From a candidate division WWE3 bacterium CG22_combo_CG10-13_8_21_14_all_39_12 (GTDB taxonomy: Bacteria; Patescibacteriota; 4484-211; GCA-002791395), in NCBI GenBank assembly GCA_002771355.1, contig PCSU01000056.1:1-49732 (forward strand): DNA of 49,732 nt. The letters are read 5' to 3'. A program made the position numbers and the translations under genes. The number at the start of each line of letters is the position of its first letter. Within the stretch, counting starts at the first letter, position 1. Below are positions 6,576 through 45,138 of this stretch, piece by piece. The notes under the pieces were generated by a model, which searched no databases, was not told the DNA's origin, and saw only the letters and a list, made by a program, of their open reading frames with translations.

Positions 6576-6595
6576 AAAACACCTCCTTATGTTGT

Positions 6596-8383: not shown

Positions 8384-8556
8384 CGGTACTTTTTTGCCGT
8401 TAGTTCATCCTTAATGGAGTGTACATAAAATCAAACCGTAGTACGGGCATGGATTGAAGGTAAGCAGTTTACTCATCGCATAGCTTGCAAACTGCCCTTT
8501 ACAATAATCTCAACTTACGGTATAGAGTTCATAAGAACAAACTTATAAAAAAAATT

Positions 8557-13700: not shown

Positions 13701-13769
13701 TGCGTGGCTATTGTACCAAAGTATCTATCCACATGAACACCTAAAATAAAACTACTCAAGATCCAAATA

Positions 13770-16224: not shown

Positions 16225-16228
16225 TTGT

Positions 16229-18384: not shown

Positions 18385-20472
18385 TTATGTTGTATTTAGT
18401 ATCTTTAATCTTCGTACACCATCTCCACGCTCAGGATGAAAATGCACACTATACGCTTCTCCCTGTGGAGTTTTTTCTTGCCATTGTTGTTCCTGCAACG
18501 ACTTTTTAGCATCAACGACTTTGATTATAGCAGTGTGTGGCCCTTGTCGTACGGTTCTTTTATATGAAGAATGTGCATACTCAATCTCAGTAATAACACC
18601 ATTTTTTCTTGTGATACCAGTAATAATCAAGACATGGTCACCCGGTCTTGCTACACCCATGCGAATCATATCAGATTCTTGAATATCGTTGATATCAGAA
18701 ATGGGAACGGTGTGCTTATCATTTGTTAACATATCTGCACTCACATTTCTGTACCAACGATCCGGCATCAGGGATTTTCGTATCCTGCCAAAAAGGCTTG
18801 TTGGAGTAATAAGTTTAGTAAGACTTGGTATCTCTCTAGTTAACAGATATGCATTCAATACATGGAACACCATGCCAGAACACTCAATGCCAATCTGTTG
18901 CTGTTTCATAAATCTAAACACTTCGGCATCTGAATGGGTTTCAAGATCAAACTCGTTTTCCTGTGCCATTTCAAGTAATTCATGGCGAATCACCTCTGGA
19001 GAACCCTTGCCGGCGCTCCTTTTTATATTAAATCGCTTTTGATTAATAACGTATGGGATTTTTATGTTCTTTTCATTTACCGTAAAATTGATATATTCAC
19101 CTAAGCGTTCCCTCATCGCTCGAGTAGCCTTAGCATGCTTAAGCCTATCAATAAGTCTCTCATCAAGACCATCCATTCCACCTGACGACATCAAAACATA
19201 TACACACGGCAAAGGTTCTGAAATAAGCTTAAAAATTAACACGTCTTGTTGTGGGGCATACATGGTATGCTCATGCGTTTTTGAAATAGCTGCAACAATA
19301 TCTTTACCTGTAACTTTATAATCAGCATCTTTTTTGGCAGACACTTTGGGAATATATAGTTTATCTGCTGCACTAAAGCGATTGTCAAATTCTGTTAATA
19401 CGGCCGGATTTTTAAGCGATGAGGAAAACATGTCAAATACACCAACAACCGTACTGTCTGGCCATTTTTGTTTTATTGATAAAAGCACTGTCTGCGCTTT
19501 TACTGGAGAATGTGCCAAGTCCCTAACAATAACAGTGCCGGCATCGTCATAAATAACTTCCATCCTTTGTTTCAATCCAGCATAAGATTCAAGATGAGCC
19601 TTTACTTGAACAGAATCAAATCCAATCTCTGTTAACAACGTATATGCAGCTGTAAGATTATCTTTATTAAATTCCCCAAGCATGGTCGGTGTCCAGTTAA
19701 GATCAATTGTTTTAATATCTGATGAACCATCATGTGAATACGTTACAACCTTACATGGCGCATGAGATATGGCATCTTTAATGTTTTTACCATCAACATT
19801 TGCAATAAGAACACCATCAGAAGGAAGCTTACTTACTAACTCAATGTAGTTTTTTATATAAAGATCTTCTGTTGGAAACTGATCGTAATGATCCCATTCG
19901 GCTGAGGTTAGAACAAGATACTTTGGCTTATAGTAAAAAAACTTAGATTGCGGCGGTTCACTTGTCATTGGAGGTACTGGATACTCATCTCCTTCAACAA
20001 CTGACCATTTCCCTTGAGAAGAAACCAAACTCTCCTCATAGCCTACCATTTGCCCTCCCACCATATATGATGGATCTTGATGAAGCTGAGATAGCACATG
20101 AACAATTGCACCCGATATCGTACCTTTCCCAAAATTGCCTGCTACAACAATCGACTCATCTTTAACCACATATTCACCAAGAACTTCTGGGTATGAAACA
20201 GTTTTAATATGTAATACTTTAGCCTTTTCAAATTCTGGATTATGAGGGTCAACAATCAATGCATTCCCACCAACTACAACAAGATCCGTCCCAGGTTTCA
20301 GATTATCGGCATTATATGGAGACGAAATCTTGACGCCAATTTTCTCAAGATACGTACTATTTGGCGGATACACGTTTATGTCAGATCCTGAGACATTCCA
20401 ACCCTTTTTTAAAAACATATGAGCCAGGGCAGATGTTGCTTTGCCAGCTATTCCAATAATGTGTACATTCAT
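18385..20472 (-). CDS. Mpl-type Mur ligase (UDP-MurNAc:murein-tripeptide ligase-like) fused to a ~250-aa C-terminal Cys/His peptidase-like (NlpC/P60- or transglutaminase-like) domain
   Basis: The N-terminus HIIGIAGKATSALAHMFLKKGWNVSGSDINVYPPNSTYLEKIGVKI closely parallels E. coli Mpl (GSDANVYPPMSTLLEKQGIE). Also VEGDEY, AEWDH, RDLAHSP and LMSSGGMDGL. Variant P-loop AGNFGKGT. Extra C-terminal region (aa ~446-695) has GIECSGMVFHV ... PGDHVLIITG ... EYAHSS. Confidence 0.75.
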   Translation of the reverse strand: MNVHIIGIAGKATSALAHMFLKKGWNVSGSDINVYPPNSTYLEKIGVKISSPYNADNLKPGTDLVVVGGNALIVDPHNPEFEKAKVLHIKTVSYPEVLGEYVVKDESIVVAGNFGKGTISGAIVHVLSQLHQDPSYMVGGQMVGYEESLVSSQGKWSVVEGDEYPVPPMTSEPPQSKFFYYKPKYLVLTSAEWDHYDQFPTEDLYIKNYIELVSKLPSDGVLIANVDGKNIKDAISHAPCKVVTYSHDGSSDIKTIDLNWTPTMLGEFNKDNLTAAYTLLTEIGFDSVQVKAHLESYAGLKQRMEVIYDDAGTVIVRDLAHSPVKAQTVLLSIKQKWPDSTVVGVFDMFSSSLKNPAVLTEFDNRFSAADKLYIPKVSAKKDADYKVTGKDIVAAISKTHEHTMYAPQQDVLIFKLISEPLPCVYVLMSSGGMDGLDERLIDRLKHAKATRAMRERLGEYINFTVNEKNIKIPYVINQKRFNIKRSAGKGSPEVIRHELLEMAQENEFDLETHSDAEVFRFMKQQQIGIECSGMVFHVLNAYLLTREIPSLTKLITPTSLFGRIRKSLMPDRWYRNVSADMLTNDKHTVPISDINDIQESDMIRMGVARPGDHVLIITGITRKNGVITEIEYAHSSYKRTVRQGPHTAIIKVVDAKKSLQEQQWQEKTPQGEAYSVHFHPERGDGVRRLKILNTT

Positions 20473-20474
20473 GT

Positions 20475-21257
20475 TTAATGTGAATCACGTTTTATATTTA
20501 AAACGTCAACAATGCCTTTGTAACCATTAATATCTAACCACTCTTTATCTTTAAGAAGTTCTTGCAAAGACTCTTTATTAAGTAGATATTTGAGTGCATC
20601 AATATTTGTATTCCATTTTGATCCATCGAAAAATTCAAACCCAGAAAAATTCGTTTTGTAGAGTGAGGCTTGAGAATACGCTGTTCCCAAATATGCATAG
20701 GACAAGCCATCATTTTTTGCCCAATTAATTGCCTCTAACATCATGCGTGAACCCAATCCACTAGCTGATACTGCGGTGTTAATAAACGCCATCCAATAGA
20801 ACATACTGCCCCCAGATACCATAACAGGTATCATTCCTGCTATACGATCATCATCTTGTCGCTTCCACGTAAAAATCACATCACTCATATGATGAGAAAA
20901 CATTCGTTTTATTGCATGATCGGAAACCTTTGCATCCCCCATTACATCAATAACAAATTGGCGCATCCATAATAAATCTGTGTTATTAATTCTCACTGAA
21001 TCACTTGATTGAATGGTGAAATGATATGGCGATGTTTTTTTTATAACGCGACGATTTTCTGAAGAAGGTTCAAATTGATTAAGATCAATTCGCGTTGAAC
21101 GAGCAAGATACCATAAACCAATTTTCATTCTCGAAGGCAAAAAACCCATGTTAAGTAATGAAGCTTTATCTTCATTATTATCTTCTAAGGCCCACACTTG
21201 ATACGGAAACGCATAGTCATTATAGGAAGCAAGATGTTCTGAGAATAGTAACTTCAT
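20475..21257 (-). CDS. ATE/Bpt-family (arginyl/leucyl-tRNA--protein transferase-like) aminoacyl-tRNA transferase homolog
   Basis: 260 aa. GFLPSR...RIDLNQFEPSSENRRVIKK parallels Bpt GFRRSG...RV..F.PS.SQRR. The C-terminal LSYAYLGTAYSQASLYKTNFSGFEFFDGSKW parallels the ATE_C motif YLGY...YK..F.P.E....W. The N-terminal Cys cluster of Bpt is absent. Confidence 0.6.
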   Translation of the reverse strand: MKLLFSEHLASYNDYAFPYQVWALEDNNEDKASLLNMGFLPSRMKIGLWYLARSTRIDLNQFEPSSENRRVIKKTSPYHFTIQSSDSVRINNTDLLWMRQFVIDVMGDAKVSDHAIKRMFSHHMSDVIFTWKRQDDDRIAGMIPVMVSGGSMFYWMAFINTAVSASGLGSRMMLEAINWAKNDGLSYAYLGTAYSQASLYKTNFSGFEFFDGSKWNTNIDALKYLLNKESLQELLKDKEWLDINGYKGIVDVLNIKRDSH

Positions 21258-21335: not shown

Positions 21336-22802
21336 ATGGATAACAATTTTAGTATTGATAATCTCAAACAAGCAGTTCTTATGTATCACCCATCTGCAGA
21401 AATTGAGATAATAGATAACGCCTACAATTTTGCCGAGATGGCATATGCGGACATAAACAGAATTGACGATACCCCACTTATTGATCATGCCCTTGCAACG
21501 GCACTTATCCTTGCTGATATTCGAGTTGACGAACACACTATTGCAGCAGGTCTCCTTCATGACATCATCCATGAAACAGATCTTTCCCTCCAGGATATAG
21601 AAGGTGATTTTGAACCAGAAACCTTAAAACTCATTACTGACATTAGTAAACTTAAAACATATACGACAAAACAAAGTGAACTAGCCTATGCCCAACAATT
21701 AAGAAATCTATTTCTTGCTACAACTGAAGACATTCGTGTTGTTTTAGTACGACTTGCTGAAAAAATCCACAACTTACATAGCATTACAGCTCTTCCGCAA
21801 GAAAAAAGACTTGTTGTTGCTCAAAAAGCTATTGACATTTATGCACCACTTGCCGACCTATTGGGTGTTCAAAAATTTAAACGTGAACTTGAAGACCGAG
21901 CATTTGAGGTTTTAAACAAAGTAGAATTTGAAACCATAAAAAATTATTATGACTCCAGGTATGGTTCACAAGACAGTACGGTTAATGCGATCCACGATGA
22001 CTTACAGCAAACACTCGCATCACGAAACATGGATTTCAAACTGTATGGACGCATGAAGGCAAAATACAGTACCTATAAAAAATTCCTTGCAGAAAGCGAG
22101 GGGAAACAGACTCTTGAAGATTTTCTCGATACTATTTATGACAAAATTGGATTCACTATTCTTGTTAACTCAACGGAAGACTGCTACAGGAGTTTAAGCA
22201 CCTTGCGTCGTGAATTCCCTTCTGCACGGGATCTAGTCAAGGACTATATTATAAATCCCAAACCTAATGGATATAAAGCTATTCACACCTACATAACTAC
22301 AAAAAACGACATGCCTTGTGAGGTTCAAATAAAAACTCACATCATGCACGAATTTAATGAATTTGGGCCTGCTGCACATGCATTCTACAAACTTGTGGGT
22401 AGAAAACGTGGTTCCTTGCTTGAAACACCTGAAGAGAAAATAACTCAAATGAAAGAACTCTTACATTGGAAGGAAGGCATTCTTAGCGATAACGATGCGA
22501 CAACAAAACTAACAACTTTCAAAAAACATATTTATGTCTTTACCCCTAAAGCCGATGTTATTGAACTACCTCACGGTGCAACCCCAATAGATTTTGCATA
22601 CCATATTCACACTAAAATTGGCGATCGCATACGTGGAGCTCATGTTAATAATAAATTTGTCGGTATAGATCATGTTTTAGAGAATGGTGATGTATGCGAA
22701 ATCCTAACCCGTAACGGAAGACAAAAACCAAGCCGTGATTGGCTCAGAATAGCAAAAACTGCTGCAGCTCGAAGCCAGATTAGAAAATCACTTCAAGAAT
22801 AA
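21336..22802 (+). CDS. RelA/SpoT homolog (HD-like domain + (p)ppGpp synthetase domain + TGS), no ACT/RRM domain
   Basis: AAGLLHDIIHETD (HD), GRMKAKYSTYKKF, DYIINPKPNGYKAIHT, EVQIKTHIMHEFNEFGPAAHAFYK, and TGS IYVFTPKADVIELPHGATPIDFAYHIHTKIG. Opposite strand to the dcw genes. Confidence 0.88.
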   Translation: MDNNFSIDNLKQAVLMYHPSAEIEIIDNAYNFAEMAYADINRIDDTPLIDHALATALILADIRVDEHTIAAGLLHDIIHETDLSLQDIEGDFEPETLKLITDISKLKTYTTKQSELAYAQQLRNLFLATTEDIRVVLVRLAEKIHNLHSITALPQEKRLVVAQKAIDIYAPLADLLGVQKFKRELEDRAFEVLNKVEFETIKNYYDSRYGSQDSTVNAIHDDLQQTLASRNMDFKLYGRMKAKYSTYKKFLAESEGKQTLEDFLDTIYDKIGFTILVNSTEDCYRSLSTLRREFPSARDLVKDYIINPKPNGYKAIHTYITTKNDMPCEVQIKTHIMHEFNEFGPAAHAFYKLVGRKRGSLLETPEEKITQMKELLHWKEGILSDNDATTKLTTFKKHIYVFTPKADVIELPHGATPIDFAYHIHTKIGDRIRGAHVNNKFVGIDHVLENGDVCEILTRNGRQKPSRDWLRIAKTAAARSQIRKSLQE

Positions 22803-22833: not shown

Positions 22834-23955
22834 TTACGTAGTATATTGATTGATTAGTTCACGAACAACAGCTTGGTCACTCCATGGGATTTCTGTTTTA
22901 CCATCTAGATTCATGGATTTCTCATGTCCCTTTCCAGTAATTAAAACAATGCTTCCCTCCGTTGCTTGTGATAGTGCAAATGCAATTGCTTCTTTTCGAT
23001 TGGGCTTAATAAAATAAGTTTCATCACGTACACCACCTGCATTGCCTGCCCCTAAAGCAATTTGTTGACAAATTACGTTCACATCTTCTGTGCGTGGATC
23101 TTCAGCAGTTATCACTGTTAAATCAGCATTTTTTACTGCAATTTCACCCATTGTTGGACGTTTGTGATAATCACGCTCACCAGCACACCCAAAAACAACA
23201 ATTACCTTACTTTCGGTTGAGACCATGGTACGAACAGAAGTTAACGCAGTATATAAACCTTTTGAGGTATGTGCAAAATCTACGATTACTTTAAACTTGT
23301 CATTATATACAACCTCCATTCGCCCAGAGATTGCAGTTACTGACTCGATACCTTTTTTAACAAACTCTTGTGGTACTTGTAAGGCAAGTGCAATCGCTGC
23401 TGCTAGTTTTGCATTTTGCGTATTATAGCTCCCCAAGAGATTAACATCGATTCCCTGAAGCACTCCATCCGAAATATTCTCAGCACTAAGCGAAATATCA
23501 CCAGTAGCTAAAAATGAAAGTTTTGTCTTTTGATAAGCTTCAAAACTTTTATGGTAATCCAAATGCTCGTGTGTAATATTTGTTAGTCCAGTTACATTAA
23601 AATGCACACCCGCAAACCTGTTTTGATCAATTGCATGGGAAGTTACCTCCAAAACAACATGGGTCATCCCTTCATTTACCATGCTACGTAATATTTTTTG
23701 AACATCCCATGCCCCGGGACTTGTTACATGAAACCCTGTATCCATCTGCTTATCTCCAAACTGTGCAGAAATGGTTGATAATAAGCCAACGTTAATTCCT
23801 GCTTTACTTAAAATTGCATGCGTATAAATAGATGTCGTTGTTTTACCATCAGTGCCTGTAATACCAATCACAGTCAGCTTACGAGAAGGGTGACCAAAAT
23901 ATATAGTGGCAATCCACGCACGAAGTAAATGAAATATGTTTTTGATTTTTTGCAT
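22834..23955 (-). CDS. murE: MurE-like Mur ligase lacking the N-terminal (UDP-MurNAc-binding) domain
   Basis: 373 aa. The P-loop VIGITGTDGKTTT starts at about aa 28. Also EVTSHAIDQNR, ITHEHLDYH, VDFAHTSKG, GCAGERDYHKRPTMG, TAEDPRTED and TGKGHE, all MurE signatures. About 100 aa shorter at the N-terminus than typical MurE. Confidence 0.8.
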   Translation of the reverse strand: MQKIKNIFHLLRAWIATIYFGHPSRKLTVIGITGTDGKTTTSIYTHAILSKAGINVGLLSTISAQFGDKQMDTGFHVTSPGAWDVQKILRSMVNEGMTHVVLEVTSHAIDQNRFAGVHFNVTGLTNITHEHLDYHKSFEAYQKTKLSFLATGDISLSAENISDGVLQGIDVNLLGSYNTQNAKLAAAIALALQVPQEFVKKGIESVTAISGRMEVVYNDKFKVIVDFAHTSKGLYTALTSVRTMVSTESKVIVVFGCAGERDYHKRPTMGEIAVKNADLTVITAEDPRTEDVNVICQQIALGAGNAGGVRDETYFIKPNRKEAIAFALSQATEGSIVLITGKGHEKSMNLDGKTEIPWSDQAVVRELINQYTT

Positions 23956-23957: not shown

Positions 23958-24977
23958 TTATAATCCTTTCTTTAATCGTTCAAGTTTTACATATATCCAC
24001 ATGGGCCAATATTTCCATACTTTAATTGGATAATCGAGTGTATTCATCCACCGAACTCTTTTACCACCGAAACCTTTTTTAAAGAATGTTAACCCTGCCC
24101 TCGGATGGTTTGGATTGTCAGTTGGTGCAACCCCCCAAAAATCATACGTTTTTGCTCCTCGTTCCTTTGCACGTTTAATAAGTGCCCACTGCAAGGCATA
24201 CTGTGCATGTTCATCTCCATATTCATTGGTAGACCCACTATGATGATAAAAAGCCATCTGGTCATAAAACACTAAAAGAGATGCAGCGTGTACTCTTCCT
24301 TTGTGCTCGGCAATCAAAATCTCAATAAGTCCATCTTTGTTGAATGCTTCAAACTCATCAATAAAAAATTGTTTATCATACGAAACAAAACCCTGACGTT
24401 TTACTGTTTCATTATATACGTCAAAAAGTTTACATAGGTCAGAAACATCCGTTGATATGCGTACTGTCACCCCTTGTTTTTGAGCCTTTCGTACATAATA
24501 GCGCGTATTCTTACGCATTGATGAAAGTAATTCATCTTCAGATTGCGTAAGATCAAGAGTCATGGTGTACTCGGCATTAAAGTACATGGGAGCCTTCCTA
24601 TAACCCATACTAATATATTCCTTAATTTTTTGATCATCGTGAATAAGTGGTGCACGAAAACGCATAAAATCAAGATTTTCTTTTTGAGCATACTCAAGAA
24701 TATGCGTATGAAAAGCATTAAACTGTGCCTTATCCTCCCAATCAATAGTTGGTCCTGCATGCGAAACTATATAGTTTGCCCGTCTAGATTTCACCACAAC
24801 ACATAAATTGGCACCAACGAGCTGGTCATCATCATATAGTCCGAGACGAAGGACCGTATGTCCCTGGCTTTCCTCAAAATCTCCCCAATTCCACGCCTGA
24901 AGCATAGATTGTGGGTTATGTGAACACACTAATGCCCGCCACTCATTTTTATTTGTTACATCATGTACTGTTAACAT
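23958..24977 (-). CDS. FemAB/FemX/MurM-family peptidoglycan peptide-bridge aminoacyl-tRNA transferase
   Basis: 339 aa. MRKNTRYYVRKAQKQGVTV and YHHSGSTNEY...AQYALQWALIKRAKERGAKTYDFWGV are typical of the FemABX family. Confidence 0.8.
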   Translation of the reverse strand: MLTVHDVTNKNEWRALVCSHNPQSMLQAWNWGDFEESQGHTVLRLGLYDDDQLVGANLCVVVKSRRANYIVSHAGPTIDWEDKAQFNAFHTHILEYAQKENLDFMRFRAPLIHDDQKIKEYISMGYRKAPMYFNAEYTMTLDLTQSEDELLSSMRKNTRYYVRKAQKQGVTVRISTDVSDLCKLFDVYNETVKRQGFVSYDKQFFIDEFEAFNKDGLIEILIAEHKGRVHAASLLVFYDQMAFYHHSGSTNEYGDEHAQYALQWALIKRAKERGAKTYDFWGVAPTDNPNHPRAGLTFFKKGFGGKRVRWMNTLDYPIKVWKYWPMWIYVKLERLKKGL

Positions 24978-26228: not shown

Positions 26229-27515
26229 TTATGAATTGCTAGTCAATTTCGTCATTGTTTGTAAATTAATCAAAGACCTTCCCTCAAAAAGTACTGCAAC
26301 TGATCCGACCTTGTTAACCATTTCATCATAGAGTTGTTTAGCTGATACAACAAGCTTCGCATGAGCATAATACTTGGCGTGGAAAGGTTCAACAATATAA
26401 AAACCATCAACACGTGGGAAAATTTCTTGGTCCAACGCACTGTTTACAGATTGCGATTCTTCGCCTAACTCATATACTCCCGTACAAACCACAATATGAC
26501 GATCAGCAGGGATTGAAACAAGTTTCTCGACAGCCGCTCGAAATCCTGTGGAATTGCTATTATACGTATCATCAATAACAGAAAGATTATCTGAAACCTT
26601 TGTTATTTGCATACGTGATTGTTGTGGATTAATATGTGAAATCCCTTGCGCAATCTGATCCTCGGTCATTCCCAGCAATGCACCAACAACACGTGCGGCC
26701 TGGACATTTTGATCAACGTTTCGTGACTCATACGTCATTATTGCAACATCAATATTTTTGACAAGCTCCTCAACATTTTTGTCTGCAACATTTAATACAG
26801 CTGTACCGTTTACATCAAGTGCATCAATCAACTCCATTTTTGCTTTTATAATATTTTCCTTACCACCAAAAAGACCAGCATGCTGTTCATTAAGTCCTGT
26901 CATAACACCAATTTTTGGTTTCATCGCATCAGCGACAAGCTTTATTACCCCTTGATAATATGCTCCCATTTCTACGACATATACATCATATGAAGCATCT
27001 AAGTATCGTAATGCATGGAGGGCAACACCAATCTCACCATTGGCACTTTTGGGTGTTCTTAAAACTTTAAATTTTTCACTTAATACGTCGGCTATAACTT
27101 CTTTTGTTGTGGTCTTTCCGTACGATCCAGTTACACCAATCACTATAAGGCTCGGAAACATAGCCCGCTTACGTTTTGCCAGAAACAATAAAAATCGTTC
27201 AACAAAAAACGATGGTATTGACCATAAAAACACAGCCGCTGCTATAGCGAATGGTCCTCCAATAACAACTAAAAACGCTACACATACAACCCAAAATAGC
27301 GATAGCTTTGGAATAGTGACTAGTGGGAAAAGTACTATTACTGCAGCAGTAAGAGAAATAAGGACAATCTTAATCGTAATCTTTGGACGTTTGCGTTGAC
27401 CTGATAGTAATAAACGGACTCGATCTTGTGGAGTTAAAGACTGAATAAATAACACCATTCGATCTCGTCTATATCCTTTGAGTTGCCATTGATATAACCA
27501 GTAAATAAAATTCAT
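26229..27515 (-). CDS. murF: MurF-like Mur ligase with the N-terminal domain replaced by a ~110-aa membrane anchor (2-3 TM helices)
   Basis: VIGVTGSYGKTTTKE, ANGEIGV, VVEMGAYYQG, NEQHAGLFG and IDDTYNSNSTGFRAAVEKL are MurF signatures. The N-terminus IVLISLTAAVIVLFPLV...LFWVVCVAFLVVIGGPFAIAAAVFLW is hydrophobic. Confidence 0.8.
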   Translation of the reverse strand: MNFIYWLYQWQLKGYRRDRMVLFIQSLTPQDRVRLLLSGQRKRPKITIKIVLISLTAAVIVLFPLVTIPKLSLFWVVCVAFLVVIGGPFAIAAAVFLWSIPSFFVERFLLFLAKRKRAMFPSLIVIGVTGSYGKTTTKEVIADVLSEKFKVLRTPKSANGEIGVALHALRYLDASYDVYVVEMGAYYQGVIKLVADAMKPKIGVMTGLNEQHAGLFGGKENIIKAKMELIDALDVNGTAVLNVADKNVEELVKNIDVAIMTYESRNVDQNVQAARVVGALLGMTEDQIAQGISHINPQQSRMQITKVSDNLSVIDDTYNSNSTGFRAAVEKLVSIPADRHIVVCTGVYELGEESQSVNSALDQEIFPRVDGFYIVEPFHAKYYAHAKLVVSAKQLYDEMVNKVGSVAVLFEGRSLINLQTMTKLTSNS

Positions 27516-27521: not shown

Positions 27522-28250
27522 TTATGTGCGTTGGGTAAAACGCATAATTTCTTTAACCACAATCTCAGGATGTTCGTATAAAAACGAATGCCCGCGCCCC
27601 TCTACTGCGACAAGCGTTGATTGCGGTATTTTCTCACTCCATACTTTTGACATGGTAAATGGTGTTGCCTTGTCTTGCCTTGCCCACAACAATAATGTTG
27701 GTACTTTAATCCCCATAAGATCTTCACGAATGTCTTGCGATAAAACTCGACTTAGGATGGATTTTAGTCCTTCTGGTGCCTGCGCATAATCATAAGAACC
27801 TGTACCTTTTGTCCATAGTTTTGTAACACCAGACTTAAAGACAGAAATTATTGGTAAAGAAAATATAATAGATCCCCACGAGGCCAACTGTTTTTTTATG
27901 TCTAAAATCAGGTTTTTGGTCCGTACACCTGACGGATTAACCACCACTAAATGTGAAGCAAGAGTTGGATACTTTGCACTACACAATGCACAAACAGCCC
28001 CACCAAAGGAATGTCCAACCAATACGACAGGTGCCTTAGCATTGTTTACTATGTACTCTTCTAACCATTGTGCGTACTCAGAAATACCCCAATCTGTTGG
28101 AGGTACATTCGTTTGTCCAAAACCGGGCAAGGTTGGAACTAATACACGGTATCCTAGACCATTGAGTTCATCTTCAAGTTTTTTAAGTGGATTTATTTTA
28201 TATGTCCACCCGTGAACAAGAACTATTGTTACATTATTCTTGATATCCAT
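27522..28250 (-). CDS. Alpha/beta-fold hydrolase
   Basis: VLVHGW, nucleophile elbow VGHSFGG, and C-terminal GRGHSF. 242 aa. Confidence 0.8.
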   Translation of the reverse strand: MDIKNNVTIVLVHGWTYKINPLKKLEDELNGLGYRVLVPTLPGFGQTNVPPTDWGISEYAQWLEEYIVNNAKAPVVLVGHSFGGAVCALCSAKYPTLASHLVVVNPSGVRTKNLILDIKKQLASWGSIIFSLPIISVFKSGVTKLWTKGTGSYDYAQAPEGLKSILSRVLSQDIREDLMGIKVPTLLLWARQDKATPFTMSKVWSEKIPQSTLVAVEGRGHSFLYEHPEIVVKEIMRFTQRT

Positions 28251-29502
28251 AAATTTTCATACCTAGCTTTGCCAATGAACTAAAGATATTTTGATGTACA
28301 TCCTTGATCGCATTTGAATATGATATTTCTGAAGTCCCTGATGCAGCCTGTGCACACAAAAGCGCACTCACAGCTGACTCATATGACTCTGGTGCAAATT
28401 TTGTTGCCCTAAATTTATGTGGACCAAATATTCTCACTTCAGATGTAAATGGATCCGATGGTAATACCGTGACTTCAACCCCACAGGAGGAAAGCGGGCT
28501 TACAATTTCTGACACCTTATGCTTTTCAATAAACAATTGGGATTCCCCATCAGACAATCCAGAAATGACGCTTAATACTGATTGCCATATGAGGGGTAAT
28601 CTTTGAGACTCACTAAGCGTTTGAATAGATGGGGTAAATACCTGGTCTTTTTGCCACACTCTTAAAACCTCTTTATCAAGACTAAATTCAACACCACGAT
28701 CTAATAATCGCTTTGTTATCCGTGATAATGATTTATTGGGAAAGTTAGTTATTTGTATATCTCCTCTAGAAACTGCAACCAATGCCAAATATAACAAGGC
28801 TTCGCGTGATGATGGCGGAACCACATACAAAATTCCAATAAGTTCAGGGACAGACTCGACAACAATTTCAAGATTATCTCCTTGAATATGAACCCCCATT
28901 TGTGTAAAAACAGCTTTTAAAATATCAAACTCCTCTGAGGGAGCACATTGCTTAATCGTTGTCTTTAAACCACTTGTGGCTAACGTAAGGGCAACGAGCG
29001 AGGCAAGCACCTTATCTTCAAAGGACATCTCTGATGGAAGAGTAACCGCACAATCTTTTTTTGTTGTGGGCAAATATGCAACTACATAATGGGACTCTAA
29101 CTCAACGGTTACACCAAATGCCTCTAGGATTGGACGAAGGTATGAATGAGATGCAATAACAGTCTCGGGAATGCCGGCCTTTCCAAATCGTGCGAGTAAT
29201 GTTGCCCAAATCAATACAAGTTCAAATGTAGTAAGAGTTTTGTTGGGAGGAATCGCCGACATTGAAATTGATTCTCCATGAATGGAAACCCCATCATCTG
29301 TTAGAATTTGAGCTCCAATAAAGGCAAGTATTTCTGTTGTATCCCCTAATGTTTTACAATCTGGTGGATTTTTTACAACGGTCGGGTTCTGTGACAATAT
29401 TCCTGCAATAAGTGCGATTTTAGAAGCCATAACACTCTCAGATAGTGTTACCTCTCCCGTTAAGTAGCTATTCCCCTCAATTGTTATTGTTTCTATCTCC
29501 AT
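28234..29502 (-). CDS. MurA/EPSP-synthase-fold protein with degenerate active-site residues
   Basis: 422 aa, alignable by eye to MurA. LTGEVTLSESVMASKIALIAGIL parallels [23 protein letters not shown], and LLARFGKAGIPETVIASHSYLRP parallels [22 protein letters not shown]. The K22/N23 equivalents are V/M, and the loop has no Cys or Asp. Confidence 0.65.
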   Translation of the reverse strand: MEIETITIEGNSYLTGEVTLSESVMASKIALIAGILSQNPTVVKNPPDCKTLGDTTEILAFIGAQILTDDGVSIHGESISMSAIPPNKTLTTFELVLIWATLLARFGKAGIPETVIASHSYLRPILEAFGVTVELESHYVVAYLPTTKKDCAVTLPSEMSFEDKVLASLVALTLATSGLKTTIKQCAPSEEFDILKAVFTQMGVHIQGDNLEIVVESVPELIGILYVVPPSSREALLYLALVAVSRGDIQITNFPNKSLSRITKRLLDRGVEFSLDKEVLRVWQKDQVFTPSIQTLSESQRLPLIWQSVLSVISGLSDGESQLFIEKHKVSEIVSPLSSCGVEVTVLPSDPFTSEVRIFGPHKFRATKFAPESYESAVSALLCAQAASGTSEISYSNAIKDVHQNIFSSLAKLGMKIYGYQE

Positions 29503-29644
29503 GTTTTACTCTAAAACTATTTTTATATCTAGTAAAAATCACCATTTGGTAGCCCTCGTCACCTCTTTAGCCGTTATTGCCGGCATATGGGGGTTTTATT
29601 ACAATATTAGTGTATTATAGCCAATTTTTTGAGATAACGCACAT

Positions 29645-31573
29645 TTACGCTGGTTCAATCTGAAAATACACCATTAAATCTTGGGCAAATTGAAACCACA
29701 ATGGAACAACCGTATCTGCAGAGAATGACGATGTTGTTGGTTCGCTGAGCTTCATAATCAGCACAAATTGAGGATCATCTATCGGAGCAAAACCAACAAA
29801 TGTTGTATTGGTTTTGTGAGGGTCATACGCCCCATTTACAGGAATCTGGGCTGTGCCCGTTTTCCCACCAATACTATAATCCTCCATTCCAGCATTCTTA
29901 ACAAACCACTTAAACTCACCATCAGTTACTACTTTTCGAAGCATCAACCGAAGCATTTCAGAGGTCTCCTGGCTTATTGGTTCAGAAATTATTTCAGGCT
30001 TTACAACAATCTCGGTTTTATTTCCTTTATTATCGTAATCAATAAGTGTATCCACAATATGAGGTTTATATAGGTTGCCACCATTTATTAATGAAGAAAA
30101 TGCTGAAACCATTTGAAGTGGTGTTACAGAAATACCTTGGCCAAACGACATGTTTGCTAGATCAATATCCCTCCACATTGATTGATCTCTAACAATTCCC
30201 CACTCTTCACCCTGAAGATCAATCCCTGTTGGACTTCCAAAGTTAAAAGCATCAATATACTTTGCAAATGTTTCAAAACCTACCCTATGTCCAACCCATG
30301 CAGCACCAGTATTGTTTGAGTGTTGCAAAATCTCTGTCATAGTAATTGTTCCCAAATATCGATTATTCCATGTCCGCACTGAAAACCCACTGTATACAAC
30401 GGGCCCAACATCATCAAACGTAATAGAGGGAGTAACTAACCCTTCATTAAGAGCCATGGACAATGTTATTGGTTTTATAACTGATCCTGGCTCGTAATTT
30501 CCACCTATTGAAAGATTCCGAAAAACCTCAACTTTTCCAACATCTGACTCTCCTTTTAACTCATCAGACCAATACTCAGGTAAGTACGTAGGATAGTTTG
30601 CCATTGCAAGAATGCGTCCCGTGTTGGGTTCTAAAAGTATTGCAGTTCCGTTTTTAGCATCATATTTTTTAACACCTTCCTCAAGCCTCTTTTCAAGAAG
30701 ATACTGTAACTCACGTTCAATAGTAAGAATCAAATCCCTTCCGTGAGACGGACTTTTTTGAAACTGCTCTCCATAGGGAATTGGTCGCCCATTAACATCC
30801 GTTTCTGTAACAACATACCCTGAACGACCAGAAAGATCGCCATCATAAAACCCTTCAAGACCAAAATAACCCGTATCACGTCCCGTTACATTTTTTCCCA
30901 CAAACCCCAAAACATGTGCTGCAAATGTCCCCTCAGGGTATGAACGTTTTTTATTAGCTTGAAAATGAAGCCCCAAAGAATTATCTTTTTCAATTGATTG
31001 TTTTTGGTTTCGATCCAGTCCTACAATCATTTGTACATATTGGTTACTATCATCCTTTAGCGCTTGTGATAATTCTTCTTTGATTACTTCTTTAAGAGTA
31101 TCCGGCCAATCTGACTGTTCTAAAGGCAAAGTATATCTGAATTTATGAATAGTGATTGGAAGCGAAACATCTACAGAAACCTTTTCATCCTCCTTGGGTT
31201 TAACATATAATCGTTCATGAATTTCTTTATCAACCGGCTCAGCCTTTAGCATCTCATCAATATGTTTATATAATATATCTACGCTTTTCCCTTTATCCTC
31301 CATTTCCTTGGGAACTGCAAACAATAAATATGTGTCCGCATTAATCACCAACGGATAGTTATCATGAGTATATATTTCTCCACGTCTTGCTATGAGCTCT
31401 TGTTCAACAACGTGCTGATCATACGCCAATGCTTTGTAATGTGCATGGTCTAATATCATGATCTGACCCAATCGCAGTGCAACGATGAAAAACCCAAAAA
31501 TAATACTTGATTTAATAAGTCGTAAACGCCAATCCATAATTGTAATTATGCAATGATTCCACCGGAAAAACAA
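29645..31573 (-). CDS. ftsI: Class B penicillin-binding protein / FtsI transpeptidase
   Basis: N-terminal TM helix, SxxK (GSVIKP), SxN (HSNN) and KTG (GKTGTA) motifs. The ORF-track start is TTG and Met13 is an alternative. Confidence 0.92.
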   Translation of the reverse strand: MFFRWNHCIITIMDWRLRLIKSSIIFGFFIVALRLGQIMILDHAHYKALAYDQHVVEQELIARRGEIYTHDNYPLVINADTYLLFAVPKEMEDKGKSVDILYKHIDEMLKAEPVDKEIHERLYVKPKEDEKVSVDVSLPITIHKFRYTLPLEQSDWPDTLKEVIKEELSQALKDDSNQYVQMIVGLDRNQKQSIEKDNSLGLHFQANKKRSYPEGTFAAHVLGFVGKNVTGRDTGYFGLEGFYDGDLSGRSGYVVTETDVNGRPIPYGEQFQKSPSHGRDLILTIERELQYLLEKRLEEGVKKYDAKNGTAILLEPNTGRILAMANYPTYLPEYWSDELKGESDVGKVEVFRNLSIGGNYEPGSVIKPITLSMALNEGLVTPSITFDDVGPVVYSGFSVRTWNNRYLGTITMTEILQHSNNTGAAWVGHRVGFETFAKYIDAFNFGSPTGIDLQGEEWGIVRDQSMWRDIDLANMSFGQGISVTPLQMVSAFSSLINGGNLYKPHIVDTLIDYDNKGNKTEIVVKPEIISEPISQETSEMLRLMLRKVVTDGEFKWFVKNAGMEDYSIGGKTGTAQIPVNGAYDPHKTNTTFVGFAPIDDPQFVLIMKLSEPTTSSFSADTVVPLWFQFAQDLMVYFQIEPA

Positions 31574-35578: not shown

Positions 35579-37417
35579 TTACCAGGAAATTGTTTTTACC
35601 GTATCTGTAGTAACATCAAAAGAATCTTCAAGTTTATCATTTACAAATATAGTATGCTCAACTGAACTTTTCCCCGGTTGTTTTTGTATAGTAAGTGTAA
35701 ACTCATCGCCATCCTGCCGTGGAATTGTATAGGTAAAAGAAACTACTTGTGAAGAAAGTGCAGGAATTCGAACGAAGTTATCAAACACCGTTTTTCCAAG
35801 ATCGTTATAAACTTGGCTTTGAGCTTCTCCACCGGAAAAATCAATAAGTTGAGATCCTTTCGGAACATATACTCTTAAGTAATTACGAGCTGTAGCATTA
35901 AGCCAACCATCAAACGTTCCCGTATTTTCATAGGTAAGATTGACCTTTACCGTAATTACCCCCTGATCAGAACGAGTATAGTGGTGTTCAACCGATCGGA
36001 CTAAATACATATCTGACTTTAATCCTGCAAGGTTTGCATCATTTACATGAAAATAATCTTCATCCGTAGAAACTATTCTACCGGAAAAATTGTATTGTTC
36101 TGACAGGTCTTGAAGCTCAGGATCAGTAAAATACAATAATACATGCTTTTGATCTAGTTGCTTAGTAACTACGCTAAAAAGGGGCATCCACTGGGTACTC
36201 TTTACTGACATGACTTGATCAAAAATATTATTCATCAATGCCCCAATAACATCTTTTCTAAGTGCTTGATCTGAGGTGAGCTGACTTGAATAAAACTCTA
36301 AGCGACACACAACATTTTCCGAGGTAAATGTTGTCCCTCCATCTTTACAAGACGCTGGAACATATGGAAATAAACTAAAATCAATACTATAATCTGGAAT
36401 TTCAACATCCCCTGTGAATTCAAGCAACGCCGAAACAAATTGAGTATCTATTGCAATGATCCCATCAACAGACGCTTGGCCAATTTGTTTCCAATACGTA
36501 TGGAACATATCCATTGACTCTTTGTAGTCTGGTGAGAAGTTTGTATCTCTCATATGCCAAGCTGTTTCCGTAAGATATTTTATTATGGGAGCTGGAGGTG
36601 TGTAATAAACCTGATCATCTCTAATCTCATAAATGTTTTTTGCTTCAGAAAAAGAAATCTCGCCTGACTTACTATTTAAAATAGTAAATGATGTAATAAA
36701 TCCTCCAGTTGGACGTAACTCCTTGTCGTTTTGAAACAATACCAAATACCGTTTTGTTGCATCAACTCCCATTAAATCAGGTAATTGCATTACAAACTCC
36801 TTAATTTGAGGAATATTTTCGGAAAATGACTGCGTAAGTTTAACTCCTTCCCGTGCGTAATCACGTATTGGAATTCCTAAGTTTGGGTAGGTATCAACTG
36901 ACAAATCATTAACCAAGACTATAACTGGCTCAATATCAGAAAGATATGTATCTAAAATTGGAATTATTTGTGGTGATATTTTTAAGAAATTTTCTAAGTA
37001 CTGTTCACTACCACTTGATGTATCAAGACCTAATGCCAAAGAGAATGGAGCCACATTCTCTAAAAAATCTTGGTGAACAAACAGCCCCTCATCGATAATC
37101 TTAGCAATAATAGGAAGATCTTTATAAACCGGCTTTACCATAGGAACATAATTTAATAGTTTCATCTGATCAATTGCAATGAGTAGATCTGCAGTATTAA
37201 CCCTCAAAGAGGCAAGTACTGATGGCAGTTGATCAATAGTTCGCTGCGAAGCATGTGTTTTAAGATCTTGAGCATCATCGTAAACCAATGATGCTGAATC
37301 AATAATGACACCTGTGGGGGAAAGAACAGTAATGTAACAAACAAAACCTTGAAAACAAGCAATTGCAATAAGTAATAATATTAATTTTGCGTGATGTTTT
37401 ATAACAAGCATAGACAC
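35579..37417 (-). CDS. Membrane-anchored extracytoplasmic protein of unknown function (possibly DUF4012-like, a family often adjacent to envelope glycan genes)
   Basis: 612 aa with an N-terminal TM helix (LILLLIAIACFQGFVCYITVL). No catalytic motif recognised. The family assignment is from memory only. Confidence 0.4.
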   Translation of the reverse strand: MSMLVIKHHAKLILLLIAIACFQGFVCYITVLSPTGVIIDSASLVYDDAQDLKTHASQRTIDQLPSVLASLRVNTADLLIAIDQMKLLNYVPMVKPVYKDLPIIAKIIDEGLFVHQDFLENVAPFSLALGLDTSSGSEQYLENFLKISPQIIPILDTYLSDIEPVIVLVNDLSVDTYPNLGIPIRDYAREGVKLTQSFSENIPQIKEFVMQLPDLMGVDATKRYLVLFQNDKELRPTGGFITSFTILNSKSGEISFSEAKNIYEIRDDQVYYTPPAPIIKYLTETAWHMRDTNFSPDYKESMDMFHTYWKQIGQASVDGIIAIDTQFVSALLEFTGDVEIPDYSIDFSLFPYVPASCKDGGTTFTSENVVCRLEFYSSQLTSDQALRKDVIGALMNNIFDQVMSVKSTQWMPLFSVVTKQLDQKHVLLYFTDPELQDLSEQYNFSGRIVSTDEDYFHVNDANLAGLKSDMYLVRSVEHHYTRSDQGVITVKVNLTYENTGTFDGWLNATARNYLRVYVPKGSQLIDFSGGEAQSQVYNDLGKTVFDNFVRIPALSSQVVSFTYTIPRQDGDEFTLTIQKQPGKSSVEHTIFVNDKLEDSFDVTTDTVKTISW

Positions 37418-37420
37418 ATT

Positions 37421-38872
37421 CTACATTGCTCCTGAACCTTTGAGAACAACAGGAATGGTTCTAAATAAAATTTTAATATCTAACCACACACTTGCGTGGG
37501 TTGCATAGTAAGCATCCATTGATACTCGTTCTGTAAAATCAACATTACTTCTACCTGAAACCTGCCATAAACCGGTAATCCCTGGTTTAACTGTCAATAA
37601 ACGTCGAACGAGGGCTTTCGTCTGAGGAAAACTATTTTGCTGTGTCTGAAGTTCTTTTACAACATAAGCACGCGGTCCAACAATACTTATCTCCCCCTTT
37701 AATACGTTAATAAGTTGCGGTAACTCATCAATACTAGTTCTACGAATAAACGATCCCACTTTTGTTACCCGAGGGTCCTTAGCAAGTTTATAATTTGGTT
37801 GCTCCTCTTTTAATTTTTCTGTTTTCTCATCCTGACTTGCGTGAACAAACTTGCCATCTTTTTCAAACATACTCATACTTCTAAACTTAATAAGGTCAAA
37901 TTCAAGCCCATTACGACCTACTCGTCGGTGCCGAAACAACACAGGACCTTTGGAGTCTAAATGAATCGCAATCGCGGTACAAGCCATAAGCGGCGAAAGA
38001 AAAATAAGCGAAACAACACTTATGAAAACATCAAGTAACCTTTTAAATGCAAGCATCCACCCATCTAATAGTGACGGGCTCAGTTCAATAAGTGGTGTTG
38101 CGGCAAACTCGTGAGTTTTTACATGTGCAGTTGCAAGATCAAGTACATTTGGAACAAACATAAATGCTATTCCCCTACCCTCACAGACTGTAAAAATTTC
38201 AAGAGATGTACTATCCGAAATTGCAGGATCAGCAATGATTACCACATGCACGACTTCATCAATGAGATATTTTTCTAATGAATCAAAATTGTACGTCCAC
38301 TCAGGAAGTCCAGGATCTATTAAGGAGTCCTTAGAGCTTGGTTGTGTAATATATATCGCCTTAATGTTATAGATATTCTCTCCAACCGCTTCTAAACTTG
38401 CCTTGACCCTATCAATATGTGGTTGAGCTCCAACGATAACTACATTTTCCCTGGCAAAACCTCTCGATCGAATAACTCTTTCGATAACAACCATAACTCC
38501 TCTACCAATAAGTAGAAACACTACAGAAAAAAGAGCAGAAAACCCAAGGACCAACCGTGAATAATCAAATGTCCTGCTAAAATAAATCACAGAACCAACA
38601 AATGCCCCGGTTAATAGTGAACCAAAAACAATGCGAAACACATCTGAATACCTATCGATAACCAGTTCTTGTTTATACAACCCAAAATAAGCAAAAACAC
38701 TGATATATAAAAACCCGGCCATAAGTGCAAACGGTACAAATTGCATAAAAGGGATAAGCATCACATCACCAAATTTTTCACGAACATAGTAAGAAACGAC
38801 ATAAGACAAAACTACCAGAACATAGTCTGTAACTAATGTAATTATTCCAAGCAATAACTTACTTCTTCTCAT
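37421..38872 (-). CDS. Polyprenyl-phosphate glycosyl-1-phosphate transferase (bacterial sugar transferase, WbaP/CpsE-like)
   Basis: N-terminal TM helices. C-terminal [20 protein letters not shown]...[22 protein letters not shown]...[36 protein letters not shown]...[13 protein letters not shown]. Confidence 0.88.
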
Positions 38873-38873
38873 T

Positions 38874-39743
38874 TTACGTGTAGATTATAACAATGATACT
38901 TAGTCCCCACAACAACGCGGTCAAAATAATTTGTTTATCAGTCAATAGTGTTCGGGTCGGATCCTCCCCCTTATTGTCCGTATAAACCAAAAGCAGATAC
39001 CTAAATAATCCATATACGACAAGTGGGACAGTATAAACCAACGCTGAGGTTCCCAAACGATTAACAACATCCGGTGCTTGAGTATACAAAACATAACTTA
39101 ATAAACTTGCCGTTGATACTATTGTTAAGAGTGTATCCAGAAGTTGTGGGGTGTAGTTTTGTAAAGATTTTCTTGTTCCAGAAGCACTATCTCCTAATAG
39201 CAAAAACTCATGCCTACGTTTTCCAATTACAAGAAATAACGCAAGAAAAAATGTTGTTATAAATAGCCAGTTTGAAATAGTAACCCCAATTGCAACACCA
39301 CCCGCTACCGCACGAATTACAAAACCGAGTGAAACGATAAGAATATCAACCAATTCGATGTGTTTTAAAACCTTTGTATATGATGTTGTAAGAATAAGAT
39401 ATACCATAAGAATGGCAAAAAATTGAGGGCTTACTAATAACGCCGTACCTACACTTACTACAAATAACACCCCTGCAATAATCCATGCCTGACGAGTAGA
39501 TATAACTCCTGCTGCTAATGGCCGATACTTTTTGACTGGATGTAAACGATCCCTTGTTATATCAACAATATCGTTCACAACATATGTTGCACTTGCAGCA
39601 CACGAAAATGCAATAAAACCAAGAATTGTAAGATATAGAGAATCTTGATCAGATAAGCGTTGCGCAAAGAGTAGCGCTGCAAATAACAAAAGGTTTTTTG
39701 CCCACTGATGTACTCGAATTAGTCGTATTACGTTTCGTTGCAT
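38874..39743 (-). CDS. UbiA-family prenyl-phosphate transferase, decaprenyl-phosphate phosphoribosyltransferase (DPPR synthase)-like
   Basis: VVNDIVDITRDRLHPVKKYRPLAAG resembles the Rv3806c-type NDxxDxxxD...K.RP.A.G motif. About 8 TM helices. 289 aa. Confidence 0.7.
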   Translation of the reverse strand: MQRNVIRLIRVHQWAKNLLLFAALLFAQRLSDQDSLYLTILGFIAFSCAASATYVVNDIVDITRDRLHPVKKYRPLAAGVISTRQAWIIAGVLFVVSVGTALLVSPQFFAILMVYLILTTSYTKVLKHIELVDILIVSLGFVIRAVAGGVAIGVTISNWLFITTFFLALFLVIGKRRHEFLLLGDSASGTRKSLQNYTPQLLDTLLTIVSTASLLSYVLYTQAPDVVNRLGTSALVYTVPLVVYGLFRYLLLVYTDNKGEDPTRTLLTDKQIILTALLWGLSIIVIIYT

Positions 39744-40861
39744 ATGCTATGTAGTCGATCCACAAAAACCTCCCTAGAAAACCCCTTCGCATGATTTACT
39801 AGCTTTGTTTTATCCCATGATATCTCAGGTACCCTTTTAAGAGCCACCTTTAGATCATCTGCCGTTTGGGATTCAAACAGTATACCCGTTTCATTTGAAA
39901 TAACAGTATCACGTGCCCCCCCTTTATTATAGGCAACAACAGGTATACCACATGCATTAGCTTCAATAATCGTCATACCAAAATCTTCATATTGCGGATG
40001 AAGCAAAGCCACGCTGTGACGCAATACATATGAAGCCTCTTTGTCAGTAAGATATCCAGCCATAATCGTTGACCCAGTTGCGCGGGACGCTAATTTTTTA
40101 TATGCAGCTCCGGTACCAATAATTACTAACGGAATGTTAAGTTCCTGACATGCATCAATCGCCACATCAATGCGCTTCCATTCAACGAGACGAGACATCA
40201 CAACCATATAGTTGTCGGGAAGATCAAACGATGGTTTTTCCTCTCCATTAAACCTTTCAAAATCAACAAACGGAAACAACACTTCTGCATCACGTCGATG
40301 ATATTTATTGATTCTCTTTACCACAATACTGCTATTGCCATAAACAACATCAGCACGTTGACCCGCAATATAATCCGATTGGCGCATTGTTGAAAGGATC
40401 GGTAAAAGAAGTCGACGTAACATTGTACCCAATCTCCCAGATCCAAAATACATTCGTGGTTCCCAAAACCCTCTAAATGGAGAGTGAATGTAACTTATGT
40501 GTTTAGTCGTTGGCTTAGTAACAATTCCATGAGCAAACCTTGTGGATGTTGAAAAAACAATATCAAAATCAGAAAAATCAAACTGCTCGAAAACTAAAGG
40601 ATAGAGGTAAAACAATACTTTATTGATAAATGCTTTAGCAGGAAGTTTATCTAATATACTTGTTCGAAACCTGGTTGCATCAATTCCTGTTTTTTTAATC
40701 ACATCACTTGTTACCATTGATGTAAATATCGGTGCACCAGGAAACTCATGAGCTATTGCAGCCATTACACGTTCAGCCCCACCCCATTGAACAAAATCGT
40801 CATGAACTAATGCTATTTTTGGGGTGACGGGCTCTTGAATCGATTCCTTTAATTGACTCAC
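39728..40861 (-). CDS. GT4-family (GT-B) glycosyltransferase
   Basis: N-terminus IALVHDDFVQWGGAERV. C-terminal EDFGMTIIEANACGIPVVA (E-x7-E-type motif). Confidence 0.85.
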   Translation of the reverse strand: MSQLKESIQEPVTPKIALVHDDFVQWGGAERVMAAIAHEFPGAPIFTSMVTSDVIKKTGIDATRFRTSILDKLPAKAFINKVLFYLYPLVFEQFDFSDFDIVFSTSTRFAHGIVTKPTTKHISYIHSPFRGFWEPRMYFGSGRLGTMLRRLLLPILSTMRQSDYIAGQRADVVYGNSSIVVKRINKYHRRDAEVLFPFVDFERFNGEEKPSFDLPDNYMVVMSRLVEWKRIDVAIDACQELNIPLVIIGTGAAYKKLASRATGSTIMAGYLTDKEASYVLRHSVALLHPQYEDFGMTIIEANACGIPVVAYNKGGARDTVISNETGILFESQTADDLKVALKRVPEISWDKTKLVNHAKGFSREVFVDRLHSICNET

Positions 40862-41853: not shown

Positions 41854-41859
41854 TACTCT

Positions 41860-42984: not shown

Positions 42985-43014
42985 ATGTTATTGTGATAAG
43001 TATAACAAGTTATC

Positions 43015-44196: not shown

Positions 44197-44200
44197 ACAA

Positions 44201-45115: not shown

Positions 45116-45138
45116 TTCAAGTATTCATTAATATTTCA

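Follow-up and report, generated by a model that had tools for sequence, protein, structure and literature searches.

A stretch of 49,732 nt (contig PCSU01000056.1 of assembly GCA_002771355.1; the window, hereafter) from candidate division WWE3 bacterium CG22_combo_CG10-13_8_21_14_all_39_12 carries, as the fifth gene of its minus-strand division and cell-wall (dcw) cluster, an open reading frame (ORF) for a 422-aa protein related to MurA, in which none of ten catalytic and substrate-binding residues of that enzyme is retained. Peptidoglycan synthesis has its first committed step at MurA, an enzyme considered essential for bacteria with a wall and targeted by fosfomycin. The WWE3 protein (here termed pseudo-MurA) is best explained as the descendant of a dcw murA that has lost its active site and is maintained as a non-catalytic subunit or scaffold for wall-precursor synthesis, a reading to which a probability of roughly 0.55 is assigned. 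The original prediction, made from the sequence, had proposed such a MurA-fold pseudoenzyme kept in the dcw operon after ftsI, and alignment, structure prediction, orthologue conservation and gene position all lend it support. The coordinates given there (28234-29502) hold, while the strand had to be corrected, since the gene runs in the minus direction, with its ATG at position 29502 and its stop codon at 28236-28234.

Homology to MurA and the state of the active site

The homology to MurA is unambiguous. The Pfam EPSP_synthase profile matches the 422-aa protein with an E-value of 6e-19, and the NCBIfam murA model (TIGR01072) spans residues 4-417 on model positions 2-414; the alignment along the whole of MurA, previously made by eye, is thus reproduced end to end by the profile and at full length by hhalign. 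The scores, however, fall below the family cut-offs (103.8 bits vs the equivalog cut-off of 392.7 for TIGR01072, and 105.7 bits vs 297 for NF006873), while the aroA model matches a fragment only (31.6 bits). The AlphaFold2 model, built from a 24-sequence alignment, has a mean predicted local distance difference test score (pLDDT) of 90.9 and a predicted template-modelling (TM) score of 0.90, with no segment below a pLDDT of 50. In a Foldseek comparison with the PDB, MurA structures rank first (2Z2C, 1UAE and 3KQJ; E 4e-33, TM-score 0.85, ~21% identity), followed by NikO (4FQD; E 2e-27) and the EPSP synthase AroA (~1e-23). Persistence of the two-domain fold, which had been named as a point to be checked by structure prediction, is therefore borne out by the model, and pseudo-MurA is predicted to be a full-length MurA homologue with the two-domain enolpyruvyl transferase (EPT) fold. 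An artefactual ORF or a wrong reading frame was also considered and is ruled out by the fold prediction together with the orthologues.

Compared with MurA itself (TIGR01072; PF00275; E. coli 1UAE and 3KQJ), pseudo-MurA has the same inside-out alpha/beta-barrel fold and the same length at ~22% identity; NikO and AroA, both active enzymes that use phosphoenolpyruvate (PEP), belong to the same fold superfamily and are more distant than MurA. The structural motifs NxP, LARFG, xDxxEA, GP..L.G and LGA.I of MurA are kept. All the peptide strings quoted from the ORF in the original prediction were recovered by translation, including the ARFG (residues 104-107) that precedes the catalytic loop.

The active site was assessed by three independent alignments, namely phmmer against the E. 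coli and Enterobacter MurA chains from the PDB, MAFFT alignments that joined E. coli MurA first to 60 and later to 162 homologues, and hhalign of 24 members of the degenerate family described below against 12 canonical MurAs of the candidate phyla radiation (CPR) (probability 100, E 1.8e-92, 422 aligned columns). Ten residues were scored (K22, N23, R91, C115, R120, D305, R331, D369, R371 and R397 in E. coli numbering), and the three alignments agree that 0/10 are retained in pseudo-MurA. The sites concerned, together with one family-specific residue, are as follows:

29422..29442 (residues 21-27), minus strand: SESVMAS in place of SGAKNAA, with K22 replaced by V24 and N23 by M25 (translation and alignments)
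29224..29226, minus strand: F93 at the R91 position (MAFFT and hhalign)
29131..29175 (residues 110-124), minus strand: GIPETVIASHSYLRP, the shortened remnant of the catalytic loop, without Cys or Asp (alignments)
28654..28656, minus strand: W283 (in LRVW), a residue that does not characterise canonical MurA and is 95% conserved across the degenerate family (family alignment)
28582..28596 (residues 303-307), minus strand: PLIWQ in place of PTD(M/L)Q, with D305 replaced by I305 (MAFFT and hhalign)
28372..28386 (residues 373-377), minus strand: SYESA in place of DLRA(S/G), with D369 replaced by S373 and R371 by E375 (MAFFT and hhalign)
28294..28311, minus strand: AIKDVH in place of (H/Q)IDRGY, with R397 replaced by D401 (MAFFT and hhalign)

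The position of C115 on the flexible PGGC loop is occupied by A117, and the loop is 4-5 residues shorter than in MurA; G114 has become I, and R120 falls in an alignment gap. R331 is replaced by V or S, G398 by V and Y399 by H, and the UDP-N-acetylglucosamine (UDP-GlcNAc) motif SVGATEN (S162-V163-G164), present in MurA, is unrecognisable, the region reading SFEDKVL. In terms of function, the PEP-binding cationic triad K22/R120/R397 reads V24/gap/D401, the general base D305 and the product-release residues D369 and R371 are lost, the UDP-GlcNAc contacts N23, R91 and S162-G164 are all lost as well, and six cationic residues of the cleft have been exchanged for hydrophobic or acidic ones. Judged from the sequence and the model, pseudo-MurA is predicted to be unable to bind PEP or UDP-GlcNAc in the manner of MurA and, since the whole active site is lost, would make no UDP-GlcNAc-enolpyruvate.

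Most of these substitutions had been read correctly from the sequence. Loss of the K22-N23 pair (seen as SVMAS) and absence of Cys115, or Asp in its place, recur in all three alignments, and the PLIWQ reading of the D305 region stands, with Ile at the position of the base. SYESA is likewise real and its residues are lost, but the DLRAS motif that it replaces had been taken for the R397 region and is in fact D369-L370-R371; R397 itself lies in IDRGYE, which reads IKDVHQ here, and is lost too. In none of the three alignments is a Cys or Asp restored along with the Lys/Arg/Asp triad.

Natural Cys115-to-Asp MurAs of the Mycobacterium and Chlamydia type are active. Such Asp115 variants were seen in the alignment (P0008, P0013 and P0035), where all the other catalytic residues are kept; like pseudo-MurA they are without the Cys targeted by fosfomycin, but pseudo-MurA has Ala at this position and none of the other residues. 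As far as can be judged from sequence, pseudo-MurA fails every feature by which MurA is defined at that level and, for this reason, should not be annotated as MurA.

Relatives, gene position and origin

A word-indexed search with the protein alone returned one close relative (P0002, 47% identity) with the same substitutions and gene order, and a scan of the GTDB genome collection with the two-sequence alignment returned no matches. An exhaustive HMMER search of 1.84 billion cluster representatives recovered 1251 homologues, and a residue census was carried out on the best 150, proteins being termed degenerate when three or fewer of the ten residues were kept. Among these best 150 of 1251, the census gave at least 38 degenerate (full-length), 23 intermediate and 101 canonical sequences. 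Every degenerate protein for which a source is named comes from candidate division WWE3 (Katanobacteria, CPR), namely the window's own cluster (PJA40793.1), P0016, P0022, P0032 and P0045. Their annotation differs between resources, being hypothetical protein at NCBI and UDP-N-acetylglucosamine 1-carboxyvinyltransferase in UniRef and JGI. The pseudo-MurA sequence of the window was also found in many aquifer and groundwater metagenomes, the matching runs being of DNA only, with no RNA among them. A profile search for a canonical WWE3 MurA gave no WWE3 name among the best 120 matches, most of which are unnamed. A degenerate MurA as the lineage-wide state in WWE3 is supported by the exhaustive search and by the source names of the degenerate proteins.

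Conservation at the substituted positions, a check that the original prediction had suggested, separates the two groups (99-100% in the 101 canonical MurAs vs at most 26% in 35 degenerate homologues). In the canonical set, K22, N23, R91, G114, R120, D305, R371 and G398 show no variation, with R331 and R397 at 99%; in the degenerate set, the commonest residue at each of these active-site columns accounts for at most 26%. The degenerate family, with a mutual identity of ~20-25%, conserves mainly Gly, Pro and Leu and the inherited MurA motifs NxP, LARxG, D..EA, GP..L and LGA.I; positions of Gly, Pro and the hydrophobic core and two Trp are conserved at 70-100%. These two are W283 and W306 (in PLIWQ; 73%, family-specific), and both adjoin the old D305 site. 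No newly conserved polar residue was found in the family, N45, R105, D231 and E234 being inherited from canonical MurA motifs. Two of the marks of a pseudoenzyme, homology with loss of the catalytic residues and intact retention across lineages, are found for pseudo-MurA.

The degenerate gene has a dcw location in 7/7 lineages examined and lies directly after ftsI in six of the seven. The gene orders are:

Window and L001: ftsI, pseudo-MurA, hydrolase, MurF-like, DegT, FemAB
L008 and L013: ftsI, degenerate MurA gene, hydrolase, DegT, FemAB, ftsW
L011 (WWE3, GCA_013335095.1): ftsI, degenerate MurA gene, FemAB, further genes, mraY
L014: ftsI, degenerate MurA gene, murF
L012: secG, degenerate MurA gene, murF, mraY, ftsW

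The best-scoring canonical MurA, P0020 from a Patescibacteria metagenome-assembled genome (GCA_018814785.1), has 10/10 residues and, at 459.7 bits, lies above the equivalog cut-off. Its gene stands in the order mraZ-rsmH-ftsL-ftsI-murA-murE (L016 6386-7753), a position identical to that of pseudo-MurA, and the penicillin-binding protein (PBP) of the same genome is 44.5% identical to that of the window, which is the distance found between WWE3 lineages. Since a canonical murA of a related Patescibacteria genome fills the same slot, positional descent from a real murA is indicated. The window protein is 27.9% identical to P0020, as compared with 20-25% to other degenerate members. P0029 (L014 6214-7533) is 41.6% identical to P0020 and yet lacks 8/10 residues; the pair gives the appearance of this decay at a recent stage. 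The murA model scores form a series (460, 255, 175, 155, 148, 121, 104, 102), and in a neighbour-joining tree the degenerate sequences group together, 40 of the 41 tips in the group being degenerate or intermediate; this tree is star-like and open to long-branch attraction, for which reason no number of losses is claimed. Our reading of these comparisons is that pseudo-MurA would be the positional descendant of a genuine dcw murA which lost its function and then diverged fast, the window copy being among the most diverged. The ORF is full length in every copy examined, and its maintenance as an intact and, by prediction, well-folded protein across deep divergence is supported.

The gene cluster and the proposed role of pseudo-MurA

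The cluster of the window begins with mraZ (33468-33031), rsmH, ftsL and an FtsI-type class B PBP, which are followed by pseudo-MurA and an alpha/beta hydrolase. Next come a MurF-like ligase, a DegT aminotransferase, a FemAB transferase and a short MurE, and then relA/spoT on the opposite strand. Beyond it lie a GNAT/Ate-like protein, a 695-aa MurC/Mpl-like protein, MraY, a PALP-fold enzyme dependent on pyridoxal phosphate (PLP) and an ATP-grasp protein, and the cluster ends with FtsW, MurG, FtsQ, FtsA and FtsZ. The features adjoining pseudo-MurA are:

29645..31573, minus strand: class B PBP (FtsI-type transpeptidase), upstream of pseudo-MurA (Pfam and NCBIfam profile matches)
29503..29644, minus strand: spacer of 142 nt between ftsI and pseudo-MurA, holding a perfect TATAAT at 29619-29614 (putative)
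27522..28250, minus strand: alpha/beta hydrolase, nucleophile elbow GHSFG intact and His motif present
26229..27515, minus strand: MurF-like ligase, hydrophobic N-terminus and intact P-loop
24980..26227, minus strand: DegT/DnrJ/EryC1-family PLP aminotransferase (profile match), DegT Lys motif present
23958..24977, minus strand: FemAB-family aminoacyl transferase (profile match)
22834..23955, minus strand: short MurE of 373 aa without the N-terminal domain (profile match), P-loop present

Pseudo-MurA, murE and the four genes between them make up a tightly packed block of six, in which the hydrolase ATG and the pseudo-MurA stop overlap by 17 nt and the four junctions after this overlap are 1-6 nt wide; pseudo-MurA is probably co-transcribed with the hydrolase, MurF-like ligase, DegT, FemAB and MurE. 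A scan of the whole region for promoters and terminators gave a site count not above that of shuffled sequence. By their motifs, the hydrolase, DegT, MurF-like ligase and MurE look catalytically competent.

Both its place in the dcw cluster and its translational coupling with enzymes of precursor synthesis point to the role favoured here, in which pseudo-MurA would act as a non-catalytic scaffold or adaptor, holding or positioning the cytoplasmic wall-precursor enzymes at the divisome, with UDP-N-acetylmuramic acid (UDP-MurNAc) supplied by a route other than pseudo-MurA. Its main rival, which is considered unlikely, is a neofunctionalised MurA fold that binds or transforms a non-anionic ligand (a sugar or muropeptide) via the Trp pair; in this form it would join the hydrolase, DegT and FemAB in producing or reshaping a wall precursor of unusual kind. 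The family-specific W283 (95%) and W306 (73%) beside the former D305 site are what such a change might leave, yet the positions lining the old cleft vary freely and no newly conserved polar residue accompanies them, the conserved N45, R105, D231 and E234 all being inherited. Translational coupling to an apparently active hydrolase (GHSFG intact), recurrence of the hydrolase-DegT-FemAB set in four lineages and the atypical nature of the Mur ligases of the window also speak for it, although the hydrolase and DegT are not adjacent in L011, L012 and L014. With the former cleft positions free to vary and no polar residue newly conserved, a structural role is more likely than a new enzymatic activity; on this comparison of sequences the data lean to a non-catalytic over an altered-chemistry role, the two options that the original prediction had set side by side, without deciding between them.

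An outright loss of function is improbable. A functionless relic, drifting neutrally after a switch to another source of MurNAc and with its deletion pending, would fit the fastest-evolving gene of the cluster, the graded fall of the murA hidden Markov model scores across lineages and the lack of any conserved family-specific polar residue; it is at odds with an intact full-length ORF in every lineage examined at ~20% mutual identity, with the high-confidence fold prediction, with the 70-100% conservation of Gly, Pro, the hydrophobic core and the two Trp, with a stop that overlaps the start of the next gene and with a ratio of non-synonymous to synonymous polymorphism (pN/pS) of 0.23 (14 changes). 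Moreover, CPR genomes of ~1 Mb seldom retain 1.3 kb of dead coding sequence. The opposite view, of a still working UDP-GlcNAc enolpyruvyl transferase with a relocated and unrecognised active site, is very improbable indeed, since 10/10 residues are lost with most Arg and Lys now hydrophobic or acidic, the catalytic loop is shortened, the family offers no alternative conserved set of charged residues and the score is 104 bits against a cut-off of 392.7; the position shared with a real murA in a related genome and the presence of other wall machinery (MraY, MurG, FtsW and PBP) are the points in its favour.

Several observations weigh against the non-catalytic scaffold itself. No gene of the cluster evolves faster than pseudo-MurA (for the window and L008, 21.6% identity, where neighbours show 32-60%; for the window and L001, 47% as compared with 43-74%), and such fast evolution also fits very weak constraint. 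Synonymous sites are saturated between the window and the 47%-identical orthologue. The pN/pS of 0.23 comes from one strain variant (L015; 8 synonymous and 6 non-synonymous changes) and is based on 14 changes, all within codons 44-82. The hydrolase and DegT are adjacent in 4/7 lineages only, the constant neighbours being dcw genes generally, and the pair of conserved Trp close to the old cleft might instead denote a new site for a ligand. The interaction or scaffold role is one that we infer. Finally, the search for a second MurA homologue covered the 49.7-kb window and the flanks of the relatives' loci and found none there, and a canonical murA may exist elsewhere in the genome.

Two observations on the strain variant may be recorded here. 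Clustering of all 14 differences of L015 in codons 44-82 suggests a small recombination patch. In this near-identical strain, a single C-to-T change introduces a premature stop in the hydrolase (L015 8867-9442, corresponding to window 27522-28250; 191 aa vs 242), which is either a real polymorphism or an assembly error; the remaining cluster is identical.

Wall-precursor supply, precedents and implications

No murB, murD or ddl was recognisable in the window by profile scans. In a published account of four candidate-phylum genomes, a complete identifiable pathway for peptidoglycan is missing from the complete WWE3 genome and from no other (Kantor et al., 2013; PMC3812714). It is tentatively proposed, as a possibility somewhat on the doubtful side, that WWE3 as a whole has abandoned de novo UDP-MurNAc synthesis, the wall still being built with MraY, MurG, FtsW and PBPs; the precursor would be scavenged (as MurNAc or muropeptides from neighbours) or non-canonical, and the MurA relic, on this view the sole murA orthologue of the group, would be kept as a structural subunit of the altered pathway. 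Under the non-canonical option, synthesis of the precursor might fall to DegT, FemAB and the hydrolase together with the MurF-like ligase (presumably membrane-anchored) and MurE (truncated at its N-terminus).

The Mur ligases of the window are of interest in themselves. In the MurF-like ligase (26229-27515, minus strand), the N-terminal domain is replaced by ~70 strongly hydrophobic residues (~45-115) resembling membrane spans, and its P-loop, GSYGKT, has been kept intact; anchoring in the membrane would be unusual for a Mur ligase. Profile matches to MurE (22834-23955, minus strand) start at about model position 95, the N-terminal UDP-MurNAc-binding domain being apparently missing, and the genome with the canonical murA (L016) also has a short Mur ligase, of 255 aa, directly after murA. 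In the MurC/Mpl-like protein (18385-20472, minus strand; 695 aa), the P-loop is atypical (GNFGKGT). A C-terminal extension of 250 aa gave no Pfam or PDB match, and its AlphaFold model from the single sequence, with a pLDDT of 37, was of no use; the ECSG and GDH motifs in this extension bear a putative resemblance to those of NlpC/P60 peptidases.

Other departures from a usual dcw cluster were noted. The PALP-fold PLP enzyme (threonine synthase/dehydratase-like, 296 aa) and the ATP-grasp protein (448 aa) lie between mraY and ftsW (14878-17119, minus strand), in the usual place of murD. The RelA/SpoT-family gene (21336-22802, plus strand) splits the cluster in the opposite orientation and is adjoined by a 260-aa GNAT/arginyl-tRNA-transferase-like protein (20475-21257, minus strand), a second putative aminoacyl transferase besides FemAB. 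In L011, four genes stand between FemAB and mraY (12701-16910), encoding a 610-aa protein without a family match, a PIG-L/LmbE-type deacetylase, an APH-family kinase and a 208-aa unknown protein. The kinase and deacetylase in this dcw cluster could hint at amino-sugar salvage; the kinase and the 208-aa protein had no NCBIfam or PDB match, and no MurNAc salvage genes were identified among them.

Apart from the dcw cluster, the window holds two further loci. Four tandem genes (132-8341, minus strand, and 8485-9099, plus strand, being the stretches concerned) match adenosylcobalamin-dependent (class II) ribonucleotide reductase at full length, with a PduO-type cobalamin adenosyltransferase adjoining them; the four paralogues are 36-45% identical to one another, two have an N-terminal ATP-cone-like extension, and so many diverged copies are unusual for a genome of ~1 Mb. 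A large polysaccharide locus (35579-46701, minus strand) lies upstream of the dcw cluster and comprises a DUF4012 protein, a polyprenyl glycosylphosphotransferase, a UbiA-family decaprenyl-phosphate phosphoribosyltransferase-like protein, several GT4 and GT2 glycosyltransferases, a flippase-like protein and an O-antigen-ligase-like protein. The order UbiA-family protein, glycosylphosphotransferase, DUF4012 is kept in L001, and the last two of these are kept in L011.

Precedents exist for parts of the reading favoured here. The degenerate LytM factors EnvC and NlpD are dead enzyme homologues that regulate wall enzymes via protein-protein contacts. They offer a conceptual precedent for pseudo-MurA, but their fold is unrelated, both are periplasmic, and for pseudo-MurA we infer the interaction. 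Tannerella forsythia contains peptidoglycan, lacks MurA and MurB and relies on external MurNAc (PMC7670621, PMC5790795); it is a precedent for a walled bacterium living among others without MurA activity, the difference being that its genes have been lost outright while WWE3 keeps a dead dcw copy. In the literature on WWE3/Katanobacteria peptidoglycan, MurA pseudoenzymes and MurA-like proteins, no description of pseudo-MurA was found, and to our knowledge a MurA-derived pseudoenzyme has apparently not been described before.

Annotation of these proteins as carboxyvinyltransferases would lead metabolic reconstructions of CPR bacteria to score the MurA step wrongly as present. Furthermore, the uncultured and probably symbiotic WWE3 may depend on others for MurNAc or make an unusual wall, which bears on their cultivation. 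The series from P0020 (canonical) through P0029 (recently degenerated) to the highly diverged forms would provide a natural case of an essential enzyme becoming a non-enzyme.

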